From Escherichia phage UPEC06, in the sequence record MW250786: a stretch of DNA of 64,000 nucleotides; one strand, 5' to 3'. Every line of letters begins with the position of its first letter. Positions within the stretch are counted from its first letter, which is position 1. Below, piece after piece: positions 2,460 through 44,276 of the stretch. The notes below the pieces were generated by a model. The model searched no databases. It saw only the letters and a list, made by a program, of their open reading frames with translations, and was not told where the DNA came from. Position numbers and translations under genes: made by a program.

Positions 2460-4058
2460 ATGAGTAAAAGTATTAGAGGAATGGCAGGTCATAATAACGG
2501 TGTTTTTTACGGAAATGCCCTTTATGACTTAGAAAGAAAGGTTAAAATGGATTTTAAAGATATCATGGAAAAAGGTGATTCCAGCCAAACACCTGGTCCA
2601 GAAGGTCCACAAGGACCAAAAGGGGATACTGGCCCTGCCGGACCTGTAGGTCCTGTAGGTCCGCAAGGACCACAGGGTGAGATCGGGCCTCAGGGTCCTA
2701 CTGGCCCTCAAGGACCTGTCGGAGCTACTGGTCCTACCGGACCTGAGGGTAGTGAAGGACCACAAGGCCCTCAAGGAGAGCAAGGTATAGCTGGTCCAGT
2801 AGGACCAAAAGGGGATACTGGTGAACAAGGTCCTCAGGGAGAGCAAGGACCCGCTGGTCTAAAAGGCGATACTGGGGATATTGGCCCTGCTGGACAAGAA
2901 GGGCCAATAGGTCCGACTGGCCCAACTGGCCCTGCCGGACCAAAGGGGGATGTTGGTCCTCAAGGACCTAAAGGCGAAACTGGTGAGCAGGGACCTATTG
3001 GACCACAAGGCCCACAAGGGGATGTTGGTCCTGTAGGTCCAGCAGGGCTTACTTTCCGAGGTTTTTATGATCCTTTAGTTGAATACTCTCAGAACGATAC
3101 TGTATCTTACAACGGATCTACTTATTTTTCCTTAAGAACAAGTATAGGCGCTAGTCCAGACACATCACTTGAAGATTGGTCTTTATTGGCAGCAGAGGGA
3201 GCAAGAGGCCCACAAGGCCCAACTGGCCCTCAGGGACCTAAAGGCGACCAGGGTGAGATTGGTCCTGCCGGAGCTACCGGTCCTGAAGGTCCGACTGGCC
3301 CAACTGGCCCGACTGGACCCGCTGGACCGAAAGGGGATAAAGGAGATAAAGGAGAGGTTGGACCTCAAGGACCTAAAGGCGACCAAGGGGTTATGGGAGA
3401 ACAAGGACCGCAGGGTATCGCTGGAACTACTGGACCTGCTGGTCCACAAGGACCTAAAGGCGACAAAGGAGATGTTGGCCCTCAAGGTCCCGCTGGTCCA
3501 CAAGGTTTGGATGGTATCCAAGGCCCAGCGGGTCCCCAGGGGATTAGAGGAATACAAGGACCTAAAGGCGACACTGGTGAGCAGGGAGAGAAAGGGGATA
3601 AGGGTGACAAGGGTGAGAAAGGTGATGCAGGAATATCAAGAACATTCCTTAAGGTTAAAACATCATCTGTTGGCACCAATCACGCGATCAAAATGCCAGC
3701 ACCTCTTGATAACCTATCTATAGGCATAAGGCTTGATTCAGCGGTACGTTTTAGTATTAGGGGTTGGATTGATACAGATACGACAGCCAGAAATGTTAGG
3801 GGGGATATTGAAGGCTTCAATAACTCTGAAAATTACTTCAATACAACGGTAAGACAATTGATATCTTCATCAACTGCAACTGGCACAACCCTTGTAGCCG
3901 ATATCAGCGAATTCCAAAGAATTAGGCCATATACATTTAGCTTCTTTGAAACAACAACAGAGACAATGTGGAGAGTAACTATAACTCTCTTCACGTCAGG
4001 GTATGTAGTAACTGACAATCAATGGCTATGTATAGAAGCTGTTAGACTTGATGCGTAA
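2460..4058 (+). CDS. collagen-like triple-helix repeat protein with C-terminal globular domain
   Basis: Two long G-X-Y runs ([14 protein letters not shown]...) separated by a non-collagen segment; AAGGAG upstream. Confidence 0.75.
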
Positions 4059-4113
4059 AATAACTGACGAAGGGACTCGCCTACTGATTTGTTCTTTCCT
4101 TTAATAATAGCAA

Positions 4114-4139
4114 AGCCACCTTCGGGTGGCTTTCTTTTT
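4114..4139 (+). terminator. intrinsic terminator
   Basis: AGCCACC-TTCG-GGTGGCT followed by TTCTTTTT. Confidence 0.6.
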
Positions 4140-4197
4140 ATACAAATGACTTTCTCTTTTAATTGTGGTAAGATGATACAATACTCTGGAGGAAACT

Positions 4198-4716
4198 ATG
4201 CATACTGATGAAGAAGTAATTCAACTGGTAAGAACATTTTTAGGTGGCCTTACTGAAGAAGAGATGCCTGACAGCATCATTTTATTTTTCTACAACAAAT
4301 GGAAGGTCTGCTATGATTTGGAAAACAGACCAGACCAATTCTCAATAATCCTTTACAATACTGTTTTAGATTGTGTTCGTTGGCTCTTGGTACAGAACGT
4401 ATCAAGTGGAGCTTCTGGAATACGTGAACGGTTTGAAAAGGTTGGTGATGAAACTATCTCTGTTAAATATGGAGATAATTCCGGCAACTGGCAGGACTTC
4501 CTCGATTACTTACTTGAGCACCCAGAATACATTGATCCTTGCTTAAAAGAGAACTCTGGCCTAGGGCTGGTAATAATAGGTGGTGTTCGTAAAAATGAAG
4601 TTAATCGCGTCCGTCGTAACCCAAATTCATACAATGGGTTTATGGAGAAGGGCATTTATCCGGCACCAGGGACCAGATCAGGAGTAAGGAAGCGAAATCC
4701 GTGGATGGTCAACTAA
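4198..4716 (+). CDS. hypothetical protein (neck/head-tail joining module by position)
   Basis: ORF with GGAGG upstream; lies between fibre genes and sheath gene. Confidence 0.45.
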   Translation: MHTDEEVIQLVRTFLGGLTEEEMPDSIILFFYNKWKVCYDLENRPDQFSIILYNTVLDCVRWLLVQNVSSGASGIRERFEKVGDETISVKYGDNSGNWQDFLDYLLEHPEYIDPCLKENSGLGLVIIGGVRKNEVNRVRRNPNSYNGFMEKGIYPAPGTRSGVRKRNPWMVN

Positions 4717-4779
4717 AGCTTTGAGTTTGTTGCTTTTGCTCATCTATTGTGGTAAAATAACTTTCATGGAGAAATAACC

Positions 4780-31979: not shown

Positions 31980-32357
31980 TTATACTCCAAATGTGGATTT
32001 GATTTCAGCAATAACCTCATGCACATTGTTTTCGTTTACTTCAAATGTGTAGGACGTTGGTTTAAGGAACGTCTGAGGTGAAACATTAACAAAGAATTCA
32101 AATTCATCATCAAAAATTTCAAAGTATTTTCCCGGTGTTGATTCTTGACTTTTGAAAACAGAACCATCTTCCATAGTAACAGAAGAAACAGATTTTTCAC
32201 CAAGGGTGTATGTTTTTAACTCATCAACAACGAAACTAGGACCGTGACGACGTAGTATTTCAACCATAGTTCGGTTGGCCCCGCAAATACCTGCCCGCTT
32301 AATAAATAACTCTTCACACCGAGGATTGAGAATATAAGTTTTTCCTACTTGCATCAT
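31980..32357 (-). CDS. hypothetical protein, paralog family member 3
   Basis: N-terminal MQVGKTYILNP and C-terminal IKSTF shared with two upstream genes. Confidence 0.5.
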   Translation of the reverse strand: MMQVGKTYILNPRCEELFIKRAGICGANRTMVEILRRHGPSFVVDELKTYTLGEKSVSSVTMEDGSVFKSQESTPGKYFEIFDDEFEFFVNVSPQTFLKPTSYTFEVNENNVHEVIAEIKSTFGV

Positions 32358-35925: not shown

Positions 35926-36018
35926 TCAAAAGTGCAGGTATCCTTCATCAATAAAGTAAAGCATAACTAAAATAGCGAATACCCCACCTAAGAAGATTAA
36001 ACCCAGTAAAGTAGGCAT
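35926..36018 (-). CDS. 30-aa hydrophobic micro-ORF
   Basis: MPTLLGLIFLGGVFAILVMLYFIDEGYLHF; TGATG overlap with upstream gene; too short for the track. Confidence 0.25.
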   Translation of the reverse strand: MPTLLGLIFLGGVFAILVMLYFIDEGYLHF

Positions 36019-36263
36019 CAGTCTTCTATTACCTCAAATTCACTACTAAAAGCTACAATAGTCTCACCGTAGCCCATGTTCAATCGGGCAGTTGTAGGTT
36101 TGCCATTCCTAGATAGATAGTACACCCTCGCTTCGTAAATGTCACCAACTTTTACACCGTAATCCTGTAGGTCTTTGTTATTGATATCTTTATTTTCAGC
36201 ATTGATTATTCGAACACTGCTGATCTCTGAGTATACAGAATTATCTTTCATAGGTATTACCAA
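36018..36263 (-). CDS. hypothetical small protein
   Basis: ORF in operon. Confidence 0.35.
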   Translation of the reverse strand: MVIPMKDNSVYSEISSVRIINAENKDINNKDLQDYGVKVGDIYEARVYYLSRNGKPTTARLNMGYGETIVAFSSEFEVIED

Positions 36264-36745
36264 TCCTCTTCTGTTTGTTCATACTCGGAAGGGGTGATGA
36301 AGTAATTCTGACCCCGCTTGCACTGGTTGAAAGTCCCAATATACCAAGTGCCGATATCCATATTGATGAAAGTTTCTTCGTGAACAAGGATGAAATCAGC
36401 AAGATTATTGTCTGACCGTTGAGTTGCTAATAAAATATGCTCAAAATCTGCTAATGTCATGTTGTAACAGAAACCATCTTCGTCCTCCATAACCGCAACA
36501 ACAGAACTACGCCCTTGAGTGAATTGACGAAACTGTAAACGTAAATGACGATGTTCATGTTCATTCGTCTTCACCTTTTTCCGATTTTCGAAATATTCTT
36601 CGGAATAATTTGGATGCCTTAATTTCAGCTTTTCGATCTCTTCGGTAGAAAGAGCATCCTTATCCCAACCAGTAAACCATTTACCGTTATCATTAAATAC
36701 CGCAGGGTATTTACGCTTACTCAAATCTTTAAACATTTGAATCAT
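36257..36745 (-). CDS. hypothetical protein
   Basis: ORF in operon. Confidence 0.4.
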   Translation of the reverse strand: MIQMFKDLSKRKYPAVFNDNGKWFTGWDKDALSTEEIEKLKLRHPNYSEEYFENRKKVKTNEHEHRHLRLQFRQFTQGRSSVVAVMEDEDGFCYNMTLADFEHILLATQRSDNNLADFILVHEETFINMDIGTWYIGTFNQCKRGQNYFITPSEYEQTEEDW

Positions 36746-37055
36746 CTCCTTCAGCTAGGCTACGAATATACTTGAAAATTTCTTCATGATCATTACCAAA
36801 TGCAACATATCCATTTTCAGCATCAAGTCCATAATTATGCTCTATTTTCTCTAAAAAGCAATTTCCGTAAGTAATTTTTTCAACCAGGGGATCGGATTCT
36901 GAAAAACCCAACCCAAAAGCTTTCCAGTGCTCACGTTTAAGCTCCACGTATTCCCACGGTTTATCTCCATCGTGGAATAACACAAGGGTGTCTTGATCTT
37001 TCTTTTCTACATTGACATGACCATAAAATCCACTGGGCGATTTGTTAAATTTCAT
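36729..37055 (-). CDS. hypothetical protein
   Basis: Start at 37055 (GGAGAAG upstream) preferred over track start 37115. Confidence 0.35.
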   Translation of the reverse strand: MKFNKSPSGFYGHVNVEKKDQDTLVLFHDGDKPWEYVELKREHWKAFGLGFSESDPLVEKITYGNCFLEKIEHNYGLDAENGYVAFGNDHEEIFKYIRSLAEGDDSNV

Positions 37056-37377
37056 AATCTTCTCCGTAAATATCTTTAATTTTTGAACTGAGGTATCCAG
37101 GATCGCTACCATCATACCACACTTCTACGAAAACCTTTTGGGAATCCTTCACGATCTTTGCCCCTGCTCTTTCAACCTCCTTGAAGAAAGATTGCAAGAT
37201 GTGATCATCTAACAGGTTTACCCCATAAGCATCGTGGAGGGATTTTTCATCGTGAACATACACAACCATCTTACCATCATACGTAACTTGAATGTAATGG
37301 TCATCTTCCCAAGTAATAGCCGGAGAATCCGGCTCAAGCTTTGCAATAACACCAATAGTCAATCGGTTGTCACTCAC
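37045..37377 (-). CDS. hypothetical protein
   Basis: ORF in operon. Confidence 0.4.
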   Translation of the reverse strand: MSDNRLTIGVIAKLEPDSPAITWEDDHYIQVTYDGKMVVYVHDEKSLHDAYGVNLLDDHILQSFFKEVERAGAKIVKDSQKVFVEVWYDGSDPGYLSSKIKDIYGEDYEI

Positions 37378-38591
37378 TCTTTACCCCCTGCGATGCGTAA
37401 CATTTGGATAGTTTTCTCCAGTTCTTTACGAGGTTTGGCAACTAAACGACGTTCGTGTCGCTTCAGGAAGCCTTCTAAGAACTCTAACGGTTTAAAGGAT
37501 AACACTTCCTGTACTGATTCGTCAACAGCATACTCTTTCTGGACCATACGATAAACCGGATTTTTTACAGTTACAGGAGTATAACCCTTACTGATCGCCA
37601 TTTGGGTAACAACACGCTTCTTGCCATCGGTCCATGAGTCATCGATCGGGAAAGAATCTTTGCCGTATTTTTCAGAGAATAACTTAACTGCTGTTTTTGT
37701 CAAGTCATCCTGATCCTCTTGTGACCGACTTTGACCCCAATAATAGCCACCAGAGGTCTTAGCACGACGTTCTGAGAACAAAGCAAGGTCATCGTACTGC
37801 TCAAGAGCCAAACGCGCCAGAAGCTCGATATCGTCGCTTTCTGACAGTAGTCGGTTTGCTTCGTACTTAACCTCAAAAGTATTTGCACTATCACGATCAC
37901 GGTCGAGAGTAAAAGCTTCCGGCTTAAAGTCATAATCGAATTTAAAATTGCCTGGAACACGAGTAACGAACAGTCCATTTACAAACAGGTTGCAGTCACC
38001 ACCTGTGATAGATCCATCCTCTTCTTCATTTTGGTATTCGTCCGCAGCATTATACAGTTTAGTATAAGCTTTGCCGCGATCATTCTGAATAACGACTGTA
38101 CGTTCAGTGGTTGGCGCATAGTTATTCATAATTTCAGACATAGCACAATGAGGGATGTTTTCAATGATCACAGTTACAGTATTTGAATCACGGCCTGACA
38201 AAGCCTTTTCATGGATATCTACCGCCAAAATATTCTGTTCGTATACTGTATCATAAACCATATTTGGAATCCAAAGATCATTACCATTTTCGATAACAAT
38301 GTCTGCACCTTCACGAACAAGCACCAGAAGACCTACTTTCAGACCTTCACCAAACTTACCGATCTTGCTGTCATCATCACGTTTGGTTGAAACACCCATC
38401 AAAAGGCCGGAAACGGGAACAACACCGCCACGAGAGATGATTGTGATCTTACCTTGATTACTATCATCTTTACTAAAATAAATATTGAAATCTTCTGTAT
38501 CGATAGCATTTTGCATTAGTTCACGAGCACCTTGCCACCATGACCAGTGACTGACGTAATTTTCAGTGATGCTCAATTTAATCTGTTTCAT
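37374..38591 (-). CDS. GHKL (Bergerat-fold) ATPase-like protein, function unknown
   Basis: N-box-like ELMQNAIDT and G2-box-like GKFGEGLKVG; 405 aa. Confidence 0.3.
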   Translation of the reverse strand: MKQIKLSITENYVSHWSWWQGARELMQNAIDTEDFNIYFSKDDSNQGKITIISRGGVVPVSGLLMGVSTKRDDDSKIGKFGEGLKVGLLVLVREGADIVIENGNDLWIPNMVYDTVYEQNILAVDIHEKALSGRDSNTVTVIIENIPHCAMSEIMNNYAPTTERTVVIQNDRGKAYTKLYNAADEYQNEEEDGSITGGDCNLFVNGLFVTRVPGNFKFDYDFKPEAFTLDRDRDSANTFEVKYEANRLLSESDDIELLARLALEQYDDLALFSERRAKTSGGYYWGQSRSQEDQDDLTKTAVKLFSEKYGKDSFPIDDSWTDGKKRVVTQMAISKGYTPVTVKNPVYRMVQKEYAVDESVQEVLSFKPLEFLEGFLKRHERRLVAKPRKELEKTIQMLRIAGGKE

Positions 38592-38603
38592 TTATTTGCC
38601 CTC

Positions 38604-39320
38604 TTATTTGTTGTATTGATAAATTGCTTCAGCCAAGCCCCGTGGGGTTAATGACCGGATCATCTTAGTTCTTGCTGACTTACCCCCCAACTTATTCTGC
38701 TGATCTGACCAACCAGGTGCAACAGGAACCGGAGAGGTTTTTGGAATTATAAACCCATTCCCTGTCCAAAGTCCAGTCTTTTTAGGATAAGCATCCCGTG
38801 GTTTAATGTACTGAGGAAAATAAGGGTTAACATCATTTACCGGAAGATAACCACCATATTCCCAAGGGTTGAAATATACCGTAGGCTTTCGCCATTGTCC
38901 AGCTAAAACACTAACGGGGTTCTCGATCATGTAAGGACAATCAAAAACAAATTCCGCAAGCCAAGCTGCAATCTTTGCAGTTCTTACCGCCTTGATCTGG
39001 AAGAAAGGATCTTTTGCTTTCTTTGATGCAAAGTGACGCGAACCACTGACAGCCATATCAGTACATGGAGGGTAGGCAAGGATCAGGTCCGGTGATGGCA
39101 ATCCTAAGTTCTCTACATTTTCCATCCATTCAATATCGATAAAAGCGTTAACGTAAGTGATGTTGGGATGAATTTCCTTTACACCTTCATAATCCCCGTG
39201 ATCAGCATCGTCATAGTTGAAGCAGTAGCATTTGTGCCCTGCCTTCGCCCAGGGAAGAACATCAATCCCTGAACCAGAAAAGAGACTCCAGATAATCTTT
39301 TTATTCATCGTAGCATCCAA
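38604..39320 (-). CDS. C5-cytosine DNA methyltransferase-like catalytic-domain protein (short, no obvious target-recognition domain)
   Basis: Motif I-like LFSGSG, motif IV-like PPC, motif VI-like IENP, QWRK; only 238 aa. Confidence 0.4.
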   Translation of the reverse strand: MDATMNKKIIWSLFSGSGIDVLPWAKAGHKCYCFNYDDADHGDYEGVKEIHPNITYVNAFIDIEWMENVENLGLPSPDLILAYPPCTDMAVSGSRHFASKKAKDPFFQIKAVRTAKIAAWLAEFVFDCPYMIENPVSVLAGQWRKPTVYFNPWEYGGYLPVNDVNPYFPQYIKPRDAYPKKTGLWTGNGFIIPKTSPVPVAPGWSDQQNKLGGKSARTKMIRSLTPRGLAEAIYQYNK

Positions 39321-39613
39321 ATAGTGGTTAATTTACAAATACACCAGAAAAGTCCGATCAGTGTAGCTAAAGTAATAACACAAGTCAATGCTATAGGTAA
39401 GAATATCGTCATAATCACTGCAAAGACTGAAATACCTATGCTTGCAATAAGATCCGGCACGAAATAGTGAAATGGATCTCTTGCCTTTTTAATGTTGTCC
39501 CATGTTATTACTACGGAGCTAAGGACGAGCCAGAATAAAAAGTACAAAATGCAAGGAAATAAAGTCATGTGTGACTTAACCATATCAAACCACATGTTGT
39601 AGAATTCAATCAT
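39305..39613 (-). CDS. small membrane protein
   Basis: Three hydrophobic segments. Confidence 0.4.
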   Translation of the reverse strand: MIEFYNMWFDMVKSHMTLFPCILYFLFWLVLSSVVITWDNIKKARDPFHYFVPDLIASIGISVFAVIMTIFLPIALTCVITLATLIGLFWCICKLTTIWMLR

Positions 39614-39933
39614 TCAGTTTTCCTCGGTACAGATGCAATAACAGCCTTTTCGACGAGATATACAATAAATCTCCCAATCCCTGCCAAAAGGAGAGCAAAG
39701 ACTGTAAAAGGCAACCCATAAATAAGAACCAAAATCATCAATCCAAAACAAGCGGAAAACAGGACTTCTGTGCCCAGCCACATCTTGGAGTAATTGATAT
39801 AATTATGCCGCAATTTTAAAAACAGTCCAGCAATAGAACCTACAGAAAATATACCAATCAACCAAGGTGCGGTTACAAATTGACGGCTAAACGCCTCCCA
39901 AAAAACAAAAACATTAATGATTGCTTCGATCAT
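39610..39933 (-). CDS. small membrane protein
   Basis: Hydrophobic throughout. Confidence 0.4.
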   Translation of the reverse strand: MIEAIINVFVFWEAFSRQFVTAPWLIGIFSVGSIAGLFLKLRHNYINYSKMWLGTEVLFSACFGLMILVLIYGLPFTVFALLLAGIGRFIVYLVEKAVIASVPRKTE

Positions 39934-40184
39934 AAACCATACCTCACTTCATATAAGAATTCATCAAGATCTTTACTGTCGTCTGAACCTTCTACTGTCA
40001 GTGGCATCAGATGTTCTTTAAGATAATAGCAAAGATTGCCGGAACTTGTTTCTACTAAACATGTTGTTTTGCAAACCATTTTAACCCTTACCGATAGTCC
40101 GGCATCTTCATGGCTGTGGACCATTGCAAGGCAACCATCGTAAAGCTTATCCTCATAAGGTAAGCAAGGATCTGGATTTTTCAT
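39930..40184 (-). CDS. hypothetical small protein
   Basis: ORF in operon. Confidence 0.35.
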   Translation of the reverse strand: MKNPDPCLPYEDKLYDGCLAMVHSHEDAGLSVRVKMVCKTTCLVETSSGNLCYYLKEHLMPLTVEGSDDSKDLDEFLYEVRYGL

Positions 40185-40585
40185 TGGGAACCTTCCTCCT
40201 CTGCATATGCAATCTTAGTCATGTATTCAATACATTCACACTGGACATTGTGGCTATTAAAAACAGCCTTGTCGTTGTAAATAACTTGCCAATAGTCAAT
40301 GCTTTCAATTTCGGAAAGGTATGCAACACACTCCCCTTTTGGATTAATAAGTTCAACTCGATCAGTTTCTCGTAATTTCCAACCAGTAGGCAACTGAACA
40401 GCTTGTTCCTTAAAAATCATAATATCGTCACGGTGACCAGTAAATCTTTTAAATGCTCGCAGTAATTCTTTGTATTCACGATACTTCACATAGAGGCCAT
40501 CCTCTGATTTTTCCATACGGGCTTCATTGATATTGCAATTACCATCCATATCCCCAACAAGGTCATAACGATATACAGGTTTCAT
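40181..40585 (-). CDS. hypothetical protein
   Basis: ORF in operon. Confidence 0.4.
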   Translation of the reverse strand: MKPVYRYDLVGDMDGNCNINEARMEKSEDGLYVKYREYKELLRAFKRFTGHRDDIMIFKEQAVQLPTGWKLRETDRVELINPKGECVAYLSEIESIDYWQVIYNDKAVFNSHNVQCECIEYMTKIAYAEEEGSQ

Positions 40586-40794
40586 TTTTTAACTTTCTCC
40601 TTTTTCTCAGGTTTTACATCGCAAACTTTTTGTTGGTAACTGATCGGTGTTACATAGCGCCACGTCTTTTTAAGGTTCTCAACGAGGATTCTCATTTGTT
40701 CCTCATCAGCACCCCAGCCTGCGGTATGTGCTATTTCATCAACACTCATTTGGCATTTAACATACCATCTTGTAACTGTCTTCGATTGTATCAT
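40582..40794 (-). CDS. hypothetical small protein
   Basis: ORF in operon. Confidence 0.35.
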   Translation of the reverse strand: MIQSKTVTRWYVKCQMSVDEIAHTAGWGADEEQMRILVENLKKTWRYVTPISYQQKVCDVKPEKKEKVKK

Positions 40795-40820
40795 TAGTGT
40801 TTCCTTGAGGTCAAGAAATT

Positions 40821-41117
40821 TTATTCAATACCGAGTTCTTTTGCACTGTAAATATCGTTACCTTCATAACCTTTGTAGTAGATCAGAATATCTTTGACAA
40901 TCTCTCCTGTCGGTCCGCTCCGGCGGGTACGTGGTCGTGGTGAGTTTACCAAATAAACTTCACGACGAGTATTTATTTTTGTTGTACGGTGACCTTCGAC
41001 GAAGGTCAATGTTGTATATGCAGGAACCTTGACAAGAACCTCTACCTGGTCACCAGCCGTATTCTGTTGTTCATTTGCCATATCGTCTTTAACAACAGTA
41101 ATCATAAGTTTGGTCAT
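40821..41117 (-). CDS. hypothetical protein
   Basis: ORF in operon. Confidence 0.4.
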   Translation of the reverse strand: MTKLMITVVKDDMANEQQNTAGDQVEVLVKVPAYTTLTFVEGHRTTKINTRREVYLVNSPRPRTRRSGPTGEIVKDILIYYKGYEGNDIYSAKELGIE

Positions 41118-41477: not shown

Positions 41478-42602
41478 TCAGAAAGGCGCGTCATCGTCCC
41501 AATCATCCGGCTCTGTGTCCGGCACATCAGGAATATCACCTGCGGATTCAACGATACTTTGTTGCTCCCATGTAGGTTCTTCTGAAGGTTGTTCCATTTC
41601 TTCCATAACCTTCTTGATCTCTTCCTCTTGCTCACGCAGGAAGTTATCATCCGGCTCAGGAATATCTTCCTCTTTAATATCTGAACGAGTGAGATCACTG
41701 TTTTGTTCAGACAGAGGTTGAATCTCTGCTGCCTTAGGCTTGAAGTCTGGAGAACGATGATCATCTTCTGGATGAGCGGCATACCACTCACGAAGAGTTT
41801 CATAAGGACTCTCTAAGAAGCCCTCTGGCGGTTCCAGATAATCACCCGTGTCAATGTCATAGAACACAGGGAATTTACCAGCACGACCGTGTTTACGGTC
41901 ATCCAGAATAACAAAGTAAGAAGTGTTACGTTGTTTCATCGGGAGTTCTGGATCTTTGTTACGTTCAATACCCCACATATAATAAGTGTTTCGCATCATT
42001 GCACGACTGCCAGCAAACTGCGCTGACTGGACTTGACCACCAAATTCATGAGGCTTGCCAGATTCAGGCTTATTAAGGTGACAGAAGCAATAATAAGTAA
42101 AGCCAAGTTCTTTTGCCAGCTTAGAGATCTCATCCGAGAATCGTTCCAGTTCCTGGTTAGCTTCGGAAGCACTCATACCTTGCACAAGACGAGTGATCGG
42201 GTCAATAAAGATATCTTCACAACCTTCTACAATCACTGCGTGACGGATAGCACCTTTCAGTTCATCCCATACTGCACGACCATAGTTGTTATAATAGATG
42301 ACACTATCACCAACCTCATCTGTAGCTTTGATCAGTTCTTCTTGCTTAAAGTAGCCACGTTGCCCTTCAAATACTTCATTACCCCAAATGTCACGGAAAG
42401 TTCCATCTTCTTGAGGAATCATTACCTTTTCTGCGTTAACAAAGTCTTTATGATAACGCTTACCTGCGATCTTTTTACAGGTAATTTCGTTCTCTTCTTC
42501 AAACTTAAACACCGCAGCTTTTGACTTCTCAATACCCGTGATGTGTTCAACCATTTGGTTAAGAAGTTCAGACTTGCCCATTTTCACCGTTATGTTCAGC
42601 AA
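41478..42602 (-). CDS. T7 gp4-like (DnaB-family) helicase, C-terminal part beginning inside Walker A (putative exon 2)
   Basis: Begins ...VKMGKSELL; CFCHLNKPESGKPHEFGG resembles the T7 gp4 helicase motif as recalled; acidic tail ending DDWDDDAPF. Confidence 0.7.
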   Translation of the reverse strand: MLNITVKMGKSELLNQMVEHITGIEKSKAAVFKFEEENEITCKKIAGKRYHKDFVNAEKVMIPQEDGTFRDIWGNEVFEGQRGYFKQEELIKATDEVGDSVIYYNNYGRAVWDELKGAIRHAVIVEGCEDIFIDPITRLVQGMSASEANQELERFSDEISKLAKELGFTYYCFCHLNKPESGKPHEFGGQVQSAQFAGSRAMMRNTYYMWGIERNKDPELPMKQRNTSYFVILDDRKHGRAGKFPVFYDIDTGDYLEPPEGFLESPYETLREWYAAHPEDDHRSPDFKPKAAEIQPLSEQNSDLTRSDIKEEDIPEPDDNFLREQEEEIKKVMEEMEQPSEEPTWEQQSIVESAGDIPDVPDTEPDDWDDDAPF

Positions 42603-43340
42603 GGTTCGCTACTCCTTGCCCGTTCTCTAAGAACTGCTACATGTCCCCATGCAGACCAGACTATATCTTCAACCCGTAAAACAGGTGCTATGCACTTCGA
42701 GCCGCTTGGCCCTACTCTACTCGGTTCAAGAGCTTTGCTCTTGCCTTTCGATAGTCGTTGCTCCTTCCTCTCAACCGCTTTGTAATCTCTCGAACTGTAT
42801 CGCGATGAATACCAAAATATTGTGCAATTTCTTTCTGAAGCATGGTTGTTTTAATGACCATATCATAAACTTCTTTTTCGAAATCATCATCGAATCGGTT
42901 TGGGTTTCTTCTTCCCGCTTTCCAACCGTGATCAACATTTTGCTTTGTAGTCATCCATTCTAGATTACTATCTGCGTTATTTTTCCTGTCTCTATCTTTA
43001 TGATTAACGACAGGTAGATTATAAGGATTTTCTACATAATGTTCAGCCACAAGTTGATGTATAAATCTCCTAGTGACCTTACCATTCTTACTTAATGAAA
43101 CTCTTAGATACCCTGCACTATTCGTGTCTGGCTTTAGTTTCTTAAGTTTTCGGTACACATCTCCGCGTCTGGTAATTATGTATTGTTCAAAACCCTTTAT
43201 TCTTTTCATTTCAACCTCCCTTTTAATGATAACAAAGAGGTTGAGAGGCTTGGATCAGGATTATCTGTTCTAGACTTCCCCTGAATTCACATAGTATTTA
43301 GTCGAGGCATTACTGCCAAGGCTGGCTAGACTTAATGTTT
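42585..43340 (-). mobile_element. putative group I intron carrying an HNH homing endonuclease ORF
   Basis: ~756 nt between Walker A halves; R-like CAACGACTAT (plus 42751-42760) and S-like AAGATATAGTC (plus 42659-42669) on the - strand; U before proposed 5' splice site and G before 3' splice site; boundaries +/- 3 nt. Confidence 0.6.
42712..43209 (-). CDS. HNH homing endonuclease
   Basis: GYLRVSL...HQLVAEHYVENP...VVNHKDRDRKNNADSNLEW motif set. Confidence 0.8.
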   Translation of the reverse strand: MKRIKGFEQYIITRRGDVYRKLKKLKPDTNSAGYLRVSLSKNGKVTRRFIHQLVAEHYVENPYNLPVVNHKDRDRKNNADSNLEWMTTKQNVDHGWKAGRRNPNRFDDDFEKEVYDMVIKTTMLQKEIAQYFGIHRDTVREITKRLRGRSNDYRKARAKLLNRVE

Positions 43341-44276
43341 ACCAGCACCGATGAAGTAACCTTCACCTGGACGACGACCCAAGGTAAGCTTGGTCATGGT
43401 GGGCCAAGGGAACTTCTTGCCGAGTTTAGGGATCTCATGTGCCTTTTCGCGGAACTGTGAATAAGTCGAGAAACCATCAGGCACATATTCTTTTGGCTTC
43501 ATTGCAGCCCAAAACAACTGATCAGAAAGACCTTTGTTATACATATCGCAAGGGTCCATATCTTCTGGAATATCCACGACCTTCATTTGTGGAATTACAG
43601 AGTATACCGCTGCAACTGCATCTTTACCTTTCATGATCCCTTTGGCCTTCTCTGCTTCTGTCGCACGGTCAGCATCGAAAGCTACGATAATCTCTTCAAA
43701 CTTACTCAGAAGCTTATAGTTATTCTTCTGTGATAAGTTTTGCACGGCATTTGATGTACCGTTAGAGATAGATACAACTGTGAAGTTTGGTTTACGGGTG
43801 GAACCATCCTTCGGTTTGTACTTCTCTGTCAATACCTGCCACAAGATTGCAGCATCGTATTCACCTTCAGTGATAAAGATCATACGTTTGGAAGACTTAT
43901 TTGCACCTTCCAGCCCAAACATATCACAAGCCACAGATTGGAAACCAATAGTTGTAAAGTGACCTTTCTGTTGCTTAGGGATCGTAAGATCACGCTTCTT
44001 AAAACCTACAACCTTACCTTCCAATGTGTACGGAAAATAATGCGCCTCTGGTGTCATACCGTCTTTAGCTGACAACTTGGTACGAATACCAAATCGTTTA
44101 GCTGTCTTTTCGTCGATACCACGCTCAGGGATACTTTTACACGGATAAGTCAATACGTCTTCAACTGTTTCTTCCACACGAGACACACCACCACCATAAT
44201 TACGTGCTACTGAAGCTTTAGGATTTTTATGTCCAAACTTATAACCGCCAAACAGACTTTCGCCAATAGTGCTCAT
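43332..44276 (-). CDS. DNA primase (TOPRIM) fused to N-terminal start of helicase domain (putative exon 1 ends ~43341)
   Basis: TOPRIM motifs IFITEGEYDA and FDADRA; C-terminus TLGRRPGEGYFIGAG is the first half of a Walker A segment, then KH-stop. Confidence 0.7.
   Translation of the reverse strand: MSTIGESLFGGYKFGHKNPKASVARNYGGGVSRVEETVEDVLTYPCKSIPERGIDEKTAKRFGIRTKLSAKDGMTPEAHYFPYTLEGKVVGFKKRDLTIPKQQKGHFTTIGFQSVACDMFGLEGANKSSKRMIFITEGEYDAAILWQVLTEKYKPKDGSTRKPNFTVVSISNGTSNAVQNLSQKNNYKLLSKFEEIIVAFDADRATEAEKAKGIMKGKDAVAAVYSVIPQMKVVDIPEDMDPCDMYNKGLSDQLFWAAMKPKEYVPDGFSTYSQFREKAHEIPKLGKKFPWPTMTKLTLGRRPGEGYFIGAGKH

Follow-up and report, generated by a model that had tools for sequence, protein, structure and literature searches.

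A Dcm-like methyltransferase and a GHKL-fold protein encoded side by side in Escherichia phage UPEC06 are probably independent genes with inherited adjacency

Introduction

Escherichia phage UPEC06 (sequence record MW250786) carries, in the 64,000-nucleotide stretch analysed here (the window, numbered from its first letter), two co-oriented genes that lie 12 nucleotides (nt) apart on the minus strand. The first encodes a predicted short Dcm-like C5-cytosine DNA methyltransferase (38604..39308, 234 amino acids (aa) from its ATG), and the second, downstream, a GHKL-fold protein of the family phrog_6077 (37374..38591, 405 aa). A previous sequence-only reading of the window had suggested that the pair might be a functional module, for example a split enzyme or an ATP-dependent modification system. 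The best explanation of our data, to which we give a probability of about 0.75, is instead that these are two independent genes of the replication module, an orphan methyltransferase and a stand-alone GHKL protein, whose adjacency was inherited.

The window phage is a Septuagintavirus-like member of the Vequintavirinae. Positions 36000-41000 share 93.7-97% nucleotide identity with Escherichia phages W70, vB_EcoM-LTH01 (LTH01), A73, A7_1 and A5-4, with 97% over these 5 kb for W70, and the five phages were published as a new clade, 'Septuagintavirus', in the Vequintavirinae (PMC11370258). Both genes belong to a long, tightly packed minus-strand operon in the interval from primase/helicase to DNA polymerase, where nearly all genes overlap or are equally closely spaced. 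Their W70 counterparts, W70_77 and W70_78, are labelled 'hypothetical protein' in GenBank, and the Septuagintavirus paper has no entry on either in its supplementary tables.

Both open reading frames (ORFs) were found on the minus strand where the sequence-only reading had placed them, and all the motifs it quoted were re-translated at exactly the same positions. Its length of 238 aa for the first product stands only in part. A frame of that length exists and opens with TTG at 39320, but four codons downstream, at 39308, lies an ATG that shares ATGA with the preceding ORF's stop codon and corresponds to the start annotated in W70 and LTH01 (705 nt); the methyltransferase therefore most likely starts at 39308 and has 234 aa. 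Methyltransferase residue numbers nevertheless follow the 238-aa reading throughout. The 12-nt gap given between the genes is also correct: the spacer, GAGGGCAAATAA (38592..38603), contains a Shine-Dalgarno-like GAGGG that serves as the ribosome-binding site of the GHKL gene.

The two families are rarely linked

Linkage was assessed in 79 IMG/VR loci with a GHKL relative, which were searched with profiles of both families. In three of these loci, all from CR9-like Certrevirus, the GHKL gene had a methyltransferase within 5 kb, in none of them immediately adjacent; the remaining 76 had no such methyltransferase within that distance. The families meet at one locus in Septuagintavirus and some Certrevirus genomes only. 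The order methyltransferase-then-GHKL is kept in five Septuagintavirus genomes and, less tightly, in CR9-type Certrevirus, since in Cronobacter phage CR9 a 58-aa ORF separates the two genes. No methyltransferase was detected near GHKL relatives in the Klebsiella, Erwinia, Serratia, Vibrio, Pseudomonas and Sphingobacterium phages examined, and phage LNA4 has both genes more than 40 kb apart. Clustering of same-strand neighbours in 87 GHKL loci gave no family recurring beyond single lineages or across GHKL subgroups. The upstream ORF in one high-GC GHKL group was judged from its sequence, without a search, and we take it to be DinG-like.

The two families also differ in abundance. The short methyltransferase family, often labelled Dcm or Dcm-like, is present in 1,520 phage records, including Drexlerviridae, Dhillonvirus, Klebsiella siphoviruses and Vequintavirus, as against only 100 records with the GHKL gene. 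In DrSchubert, of the sister genus Vequintavirus, the methyltransferase gene lies in the replication module, directly upstream of primase/helicase, and the 8.7 kb examined contain no GHKL gene; no Vequintavirus occurs among the 60 that were listed of the 100 GHKL-positive phage records.

In Certrevirus, the methyltransferase of CR9 shares only 46% identity with its window counterpart and reads PSC for PPC, beside a GHKL protein that is 70% identical. The same P-S-C at motif IV, followed by a 5-residue deletion, characterizes the Certrevirus methyltransferases (loci L007, L013, L015 and L016; ~3130-4734). As the adjacent GHKL gene is kept at ~70% identity, the Certrevirus methyltransferase appears to have been exchanged, or to have diverged faster, at a fixed locus. 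Pectobacterium phage PcCB7V has an intact GHKL gene, 69% identical to that of the window, and in front of it a 27-codon C-terminal remnant of a CR9-type methyltransferase, which ends 16 nt before the GHKL start codon and whose 27 aa match residues 211-237 of the window methyltransferase at 67% identity. The 62-aa coding sequence of PcCB7V that holds this remnant (L006 4816-5004) is labelled 'N-type ATP pyrophosphatase', an annotation that is wrong.

The natural loss in PcCB7V indicates that the GHKL gene is kept without the methyltransferase, and a published experiment on phage K42, described below, that the methyltransferase is active without the GHKL protein. Together with the linkage in 3 of 79 loci, the arrangements in LNA4 and DrSchubert and the lack of shared neighbours, this suggests that the methyltransferase-then-GHKL order is an inherited arrangement of the lineage. 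Judged by this comparison of sequences, the two genes are adjacent by descent and are not a conserved two-gene system. The proposed module, split enzyme or ATP-dependent modification system is thus not supported, in view of the linkage count, the loss in PcCB7V and the roughly 1,500 phage records, Vequintavirus included, in which the methyltransferase has no GHKL gene with it.

A predicted short but complete cytosine methyltransferase

The assignment of the first ORF to the C5-cytosine methyltransferases is well supported. Residues 3-237 match phrog_757 ('DNA methyltransferase') with an E-value of 3.6e-78, and the phrog_757-type family comprises 2,325 homologues at E <= 1e-3 in a large protein database. 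Profile searches thus placed the first protein in a methyltransferase family and the second in the GHKL-related phrog_6077 (E 6e-126). Given these two E-values and the position of the motifs in invariant or nearly invariant columns of both families' alignments, the quoted motifs are not chance matches.

Conservation was read from an alignment of 42 homologues. Motif I (FxGxG), which binds S-adenosylmethionine (AdoMet), is LFSGSG (residues 13-18; 39267..39284), with F14, G16, S17 and G18 nearly invariant. Motif IV is PPC (39063..39071), in which P84, P85 and the catalytic Cys86 are invariant, as are E133, N134 and P135 of motif VI, ENP (38916..38924). W143-R144 of the QWRK stretch (38886..38897) is invariant or nearly so. 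At the place of the motif VIII RxR the protein has K180-K181 (38778..38783), within YPKKT, the former invariant and the latter nearly invariant. A conserved C-terminal segment, IRSLTPRGLAEAI (residues 221-233; 38622..38660), is the probable counterpart of motif IX/X and would form the last helix of the fold; the block L211-G-G ... I221-R-S-L-x-P-R227 is invariant or nearly invariant.

PDB chain searches with the sequences and profiles of both proteins gave weak N-terminal matches only (M.HaeIII, E 0.72, for the methyltransferase), and fold searches were therefore needed. With hhalign, motif IV alone could be aligned between the methyltransferase family and E. coli Dcm, a comparison limited by low alignment diversity (Neff 2.2). 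The predicted structure contains the C5-methyltransferase fold, including C-terminal motif IX/X elements, and is most similar to DNMT3B, which points to a complete mini-methyltransferase and not a truncated core. The earlier view that the protein is too short to hold more than the catalytic core can thus be abandoned, and sequence and model together identify ORF 38604..39308 as a putative C5-cytosine methyltransferase that is short but complete.

Motifs I, IV and VI of E. coli Dcm and PF00145 are recognisable in the window protein, which at 234 aa versus 472 aa is about half as long as Dcm and falls below the Pfam gathering score. Three close homologues have a precomputed PF00145 match. Compared with the catalytic domain of DNMT3A and DNMT3B, the window protein is 13-14% identical in sequence, is without the regulatory domains, and has KK for RxR at motif VIII and ENP, not ENV, at motif VI. 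The sequence-only reading did not recognise the pairing, but the methyltransferase family is well known, and a cytosine methylase has already been reported in Septuagintavirus from an HHpred match to 3ME5_A (PMC11370258). The cytosine-methylase half of the finding is hence in the literature, and the window protein adds a member to a family that is known and has experimental support.

A tested homologue and the question of specificity

The experimental support comes from phage K42, the genome of which is 95.4% identical to that of KarlJaspers (Bas06) (bioRxiv 10.1101/2023.08.16.553469). Mutations by which K42 escapes retron Ec86 are located in its dcm gene (711 bp). Expressed alone in E. coli, this gene gave rise to 5-methylcytosine (5mC) in multicopy single-stranded DNA (msDNA), as detected by liquid chromatography coupled with mass spectrometry (LC-MS), and the quadruple mutant C82A/E128A/K175A/K176A was inactive. 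K42 Dcm was modelled on DNMT3A, with K175 and K176 named as substrate-binding residues from the superposition, and its reported specificity is CCWGG (all bioRxiv 10.1101/2023.08.16.553469).

The window methyltransferase is 55% identical to KarlJaspers Dcm (bas06_0055, 711 bp) over the full length (E 1e-87). Like KarlJaspers Dcm and its near-identical K42 orthologue, which belong to phrog_757 and trigger retron Ec86, it falls in the range of 234-236 aa and has a DNMT3-like predicted fold, and its gene is an orphan of the early/replication region in a lytic coliphage; the genomic neighbours differ. The catalytic and substrate-binding residues are the same, as C82, E128, K175 and K176 of KarlJaspers Dcm align with C86, E133, K180 and K181 of the window protein, so that KK replaces RxR in the sequence alignment of both. 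Formation of 5mC by the window methyltransferase is predicted from this 55%-identical homologue.

The putative recognition loop (~residues 183-215), '...PVPVAPGWSDQQN...', contains GWSDQ and is of the G[YFWL]SxQ type found in 99 of 120 close homologues, unlike the 'NPGW' type of KarlJaspers/K42 (18 of 120). Because these putative loops are of different types, the CCWGG specificity of K42 is not simply transferable. Counts of restriction sites in the window showed strong avoidance of CCSGG (1 found versus 27.3 expected, the sole site at 32131), TCCGGA (0/20.2), CTGCAG (0/16.2), GGATCC (0/11.1), GGTACC (0/8.4) and AGGCCT (2/10.9), and retention of CCWGG (78/112) and GATC (385/386). KarlJaspers displays the same contrast between CCSGG and CCWGG. 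The retention of CCWGG fits protection by methylation, but the host Dcm would act likewise and relatives without the methyltransferase are similar.

A GHKL protein with an unusual nucleotide pocket

The 405-aa protein belongs to phrog_6077 (unknown function) by the match given above. In its model a Bergerat domain at the N-terminus is followed by a second, beta-rich domain and then by a helical C-terminal one, and the Bergerat/GHKL fold suspected from the motifs is upheld by this model and by invariant N and G2 boxes, with the Asp of the G1 box missing. An exhaustive profile search returned 6,823 clusters at 50% identity for the family, 1,843 of them below 1e-30; a word-based search had given 62 matches, far below this number.

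The invariant residues in 196 family representatives are R23, E24, N28, D31, L63, G66, K70, G78, E82, G83, R231, D232 and R233, and Q27 (191/196), G81 (191/196) and K85 (195/196) are nearly so. The N box (Bergerat motif I), E24-L-M-Q-N28-A-I-D31 (38499..38522), aligns with the N boxes of MORC2 and topoisomerase VI-B, and the G2 box or ATP-lid, G78-K-F-G-E-G-L-K-V-G87 (38331..38360), with GQYGNGLKSG of MORC2. A degenerate G1 box, S53-R-G-G-V (38421..38435), occupies the place of DxGxG and corresponds to 'DDGAG' of MORC2 in a hidden Markov model (HMM) alignment; the representatives have S (116), N (55), T (20) or D (3) at the Asp position. At the start of the second domain lies R231-D232-R233 (37893..37901), present in 196/196. 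The arginine of the NLSRE motif in Hsp90 is the analogue proposed for gamma-phosphate sensing, and RDR is by this analogy a candidate gamma-phosphate sensor. The catalytic core thus looks selected, and the adenine pocket looks unusual.

Among known proteins, the GHL-type ATPases (MORC2, Hsp90/TRAP1, topoisomerase II/ParE and MutL) share with this protein the N box ExxxNxxD and, for MORC and Hsp90, a G2 box of the form G-[KQ]-[FY]-G-x-G-x-K. They differ in the G1-box Asp, which is Ser, Asn or Thr in the phage family, and in their CW, S5-linked coiled-coil, Toprim or client-binding domains, none of which is recognisable here. A profile of 32 homologues matched MORC2 and topoisomerase VI-B in PDB over the N and G2 boxes (E ~0.06), and a profile of the C-terminal 170 residues had no significant PDB match. 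Pfam cut-offs for HATPase_c or HATPase_c_3 are passed by family members P0188, P0191, P0218 and P0061, and HATPase_c_3 is matched at E <= 1 by 13 of the 32 aligned members. PADLOC returned sub-threshold matches only (the TmtA GHKL region; generic type II, Druantia and orphan methyltransferase models), and the literature search found no paper characterising the phrog_6077 family or the biochemistry of any member.

The family also includes ~1,100-aa proteins with three tandem phrog_6077-type GHKL modules (P0188, P0189, P0191-P0193, P0200, P0204 and P0215). One triple-GHKL protein is encoded on a metagenomic contig (locus L094 6001-9348), where the genes beside it, for a DUF2201 protein and for ornithine carbamoyltransferase, look like those of bacteria and not of phages. 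This architecture recalls sacsin with its repeated GHKL regions.

What the GHKL protein may be apart from a conventional ATPase can be considered independently of its neighbour. One speculative and rather doubtful idea is that phrog_6077 would form a new functional class among the GHL-type NTPases, for instance one whose specificity for nucleotide or ligand is altered and which takes part in counter-defence or DNA transactions, perhaps with a lineage-specific link to the methyltransferase in Septuagintavirus and Certrevirus.

We consider it unlikely that the protein is a short rIIA-like counter-defence factor directed against abortive infection, a proposal that touches the second gene only and is compatible with two independent genes. 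RIIA proteins are its nearest annotated viral structures after its own family (Foldseek on BFVD, E 1e-7 to 1e-5), but with low TM-scores of 0.35-0.45, and a homologue with 52% identity is entered as 'RIIA lysis inhibitor' in one GenBank record. T4 rIIA is likewise a phage protein with an N-terminal GHKL domain, followed by a variable C-terminal domain, and is part of a poorly understood counter-defence system (PMC7824862). However, the query and four relatives match only phrog_6077 and phrog_8203, whereas T4 rIIA matches seven RIIA/RIIB PHROGs and neither of those two, so that the two lie in separate PHROGs without cross-matches. An hhalign comparison with T4 rIIA reached a probability of 7.5% and covered the N and G2 boxes only; the GHKL protein is about half the length of rIIA; and T4 rIIA retains the Asp of DxGxG, which phrog_6077 has not. 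As to an rIIB-like partner, no neighbour family recurs across GHKL subgroups, although no rIIB-directed search was made in the window or near relatives. We regard the rIIA proteins as distant analogues of the GHKL protein and not as the family to which it belongs.

It is about equally improbable that the protein no longer binds or hydrolyses ATP and acts as a scaffold or as a binder of another ligand. In 191/196 representatives S, N or T stands where the G1 box would have its adenine-contacting Asp, which would fit such a role, as would the failure of the query to match Pfam HATPase_c. Against this, a family of more than 6,800 clusters shares an invariant catalytic Glu, Mg-binding Asn, glycine-rich lid and RDR, which points to selection on a nucleotide-processing site.

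Mechanism and alternatives for the pair

If the two genes are independent, the methyltransferase would act alone, methylating DNA cytosine at C5 with AdoMet by the usual covalent mechanism. Cys86 would attack C6 of the target cytosine, Glu133 would protonate N3, and Lys180/Lys181 would substitute for the arginines of motif VIII, with a DNMT3-like mini recognition loop (the segment described above) reading a short DNA motif. The enzyme would modify phage DNA and also host DNA; the main benefit to the phage is most likely protection from restriction, with the side effect that such methylases can trigger retron Ec86. The GHKL protein, which retains the catalytic Glu, the Mg-binding Asn, a glycine-rich lid and the invariant RDR and lacks the adenine-binding Asp family-wide, may be a nucleotide-driven clamp or switch of the GHL type (like MORC, Hsp90, MutL or topoisomerase II) that works early in infection in a role independent of the methyltransferase.

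Several points weigh against this account. The genes are separated by only 12 nt, their direct order is apparently ancestral for Septuagintavirus plus Certrevirus, and a lineage-specific functional link may exist that is compatible with the comparative data. The activity of both window proteins is a prediction. For the methyltransferase, the match to Pfam PF00145 (DNA_methylase; residues 11-109) scores 21.3 bits versus a cut-off of 22, that is 0.7 below, and Certrevirus relatives with and without a methyltransferase have similar CCWGG depletion (0.41-0.69), which weakens site statistics as a guide to the target. For the GHKL protein, the query had no match to Pfam HATPase_c or HATPase_c_3 at E <= 1, and the loss of the G1-box Asp puts ATP binding in question.

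A true two-component system, in which the methyltransferase is loaded, stimulated or directed by the GHKL ATPase as a MORC-like DNA clamp or remodeller, or in which both form an anti-restriction complex, is very unlikely in our view. The genes are co-oriented and close, with an order kept in the genomes named above, and prokaryotic MORC-like GHKL ATPases were reportedly described in restriction-modification gene neighbourhoods by Iyer, Abhiman and Aravind in 2008. Tight spacing is, however, common to nearly all genes of the operon, and the linkage count, the excess of methyltransferase over GHKL records and the retention of the GHKL gene in PcCB7V all argue against the system, as does the K42 homologue, which methylates when expressed alone. 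The different methyltransferase subtype beside a conserved GHKL protein in CR9 suggests gene replacement, not co-evolution. A MORC-type ATPase linked to restriction-modification genes was also tried as a candidate and failed, with three of 79 IMG/VR loci linked and no recurrent neighbour family.

It is extremely improbable that the methyltransferase-like enzyme adds a non-methyl group, such as carboxymethyl from carboxy-S-adenosylmethionine (Cx-SAM) as CmoX does, and that the GHKL protein, as an ATP-dependent enzyme, elaborates this group into a hypermodified base: this was checked since the structural match to CmoX is good and E. coli has a CmoA of its own to supply Cx-SAM (PMC12783734), and an invariant Arg, R222, lies close to the expected position of motif X, but the SPPC signature that serves as criterion (PMC12783734) is missing (YPPC in the window, FPPC in the family), a homologue with the same C-terminal motif makes 5mC by LC-MS, and the two genes are unlinked across phages. 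The CmoX/CmoA/CmoY system of Synechococcus phage S-B43 also differs in its neighbour, as the known second-step enzymes are AMP-forming, asparagine-synthetase-like ligases and not GHKL proteins (PMC12783734). No CmoA or AMP-forming ligase was found among the seven flanking ORFs scanned, which had no Pfam match at E <= 1.

With two independent genes as the preferred explanation, the methyltransferase call predicts 5mC in the phage, which would bear on its sensitivity to restriction, on data from nanopore and bisulfite work and on attempts to clone its DNA, and may expose the phage to methylation-sensing defences such as retron Ec86. The methyltransferase is not new biology; the element of real interest is the GHKL protein, with its unusual nucleotide pocket and very wide distribution. 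A widespread family that combines an intact catalytic core with an altered adenine pocket is a reasonable target for knockout and biochemistry, and the non-conserved pairing spares effort on hunting a two-component modification system.

Neighbouring genes

Directly upstream of the methyltransferase are two tandem small minus-strand ORFs, 39305..39613 and 39610..39933 (102 and 107 aa), in a chain that runs on into the methyltransferase through start/stop overlaps of 4 nt, with ATGA at the methyltransferase junction. Both have long hydrophobic stretches that fit two or three membrane helices each, and only the second matches a PHROG (phrog_15955, unknown function). The ORF at 40181..40585 (minus strand) is called 'Eae protein' in related phage records and had no Pfam or PHROG match in our scans.

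The primase/helicase gene is split in the window (41532-44276, minus strand) around an ORF for an HNH/NUMOD-type homing endonuclease (42712..43209); residues 1-312 of the 681-aa LTH01 primase/helicase map to 44276-43341 and residues 308-664 to 42602-41532. The DNA polymerase gene (35852-33225) is unbroken in the window, whereas a related HNH ORF (43% identical) interrupts it in LTH01 and W70. The HNH endonuclease thus sits in different essential genes in different isolates, primase/helicase here and DNA polymerase in LTH01 and W70.

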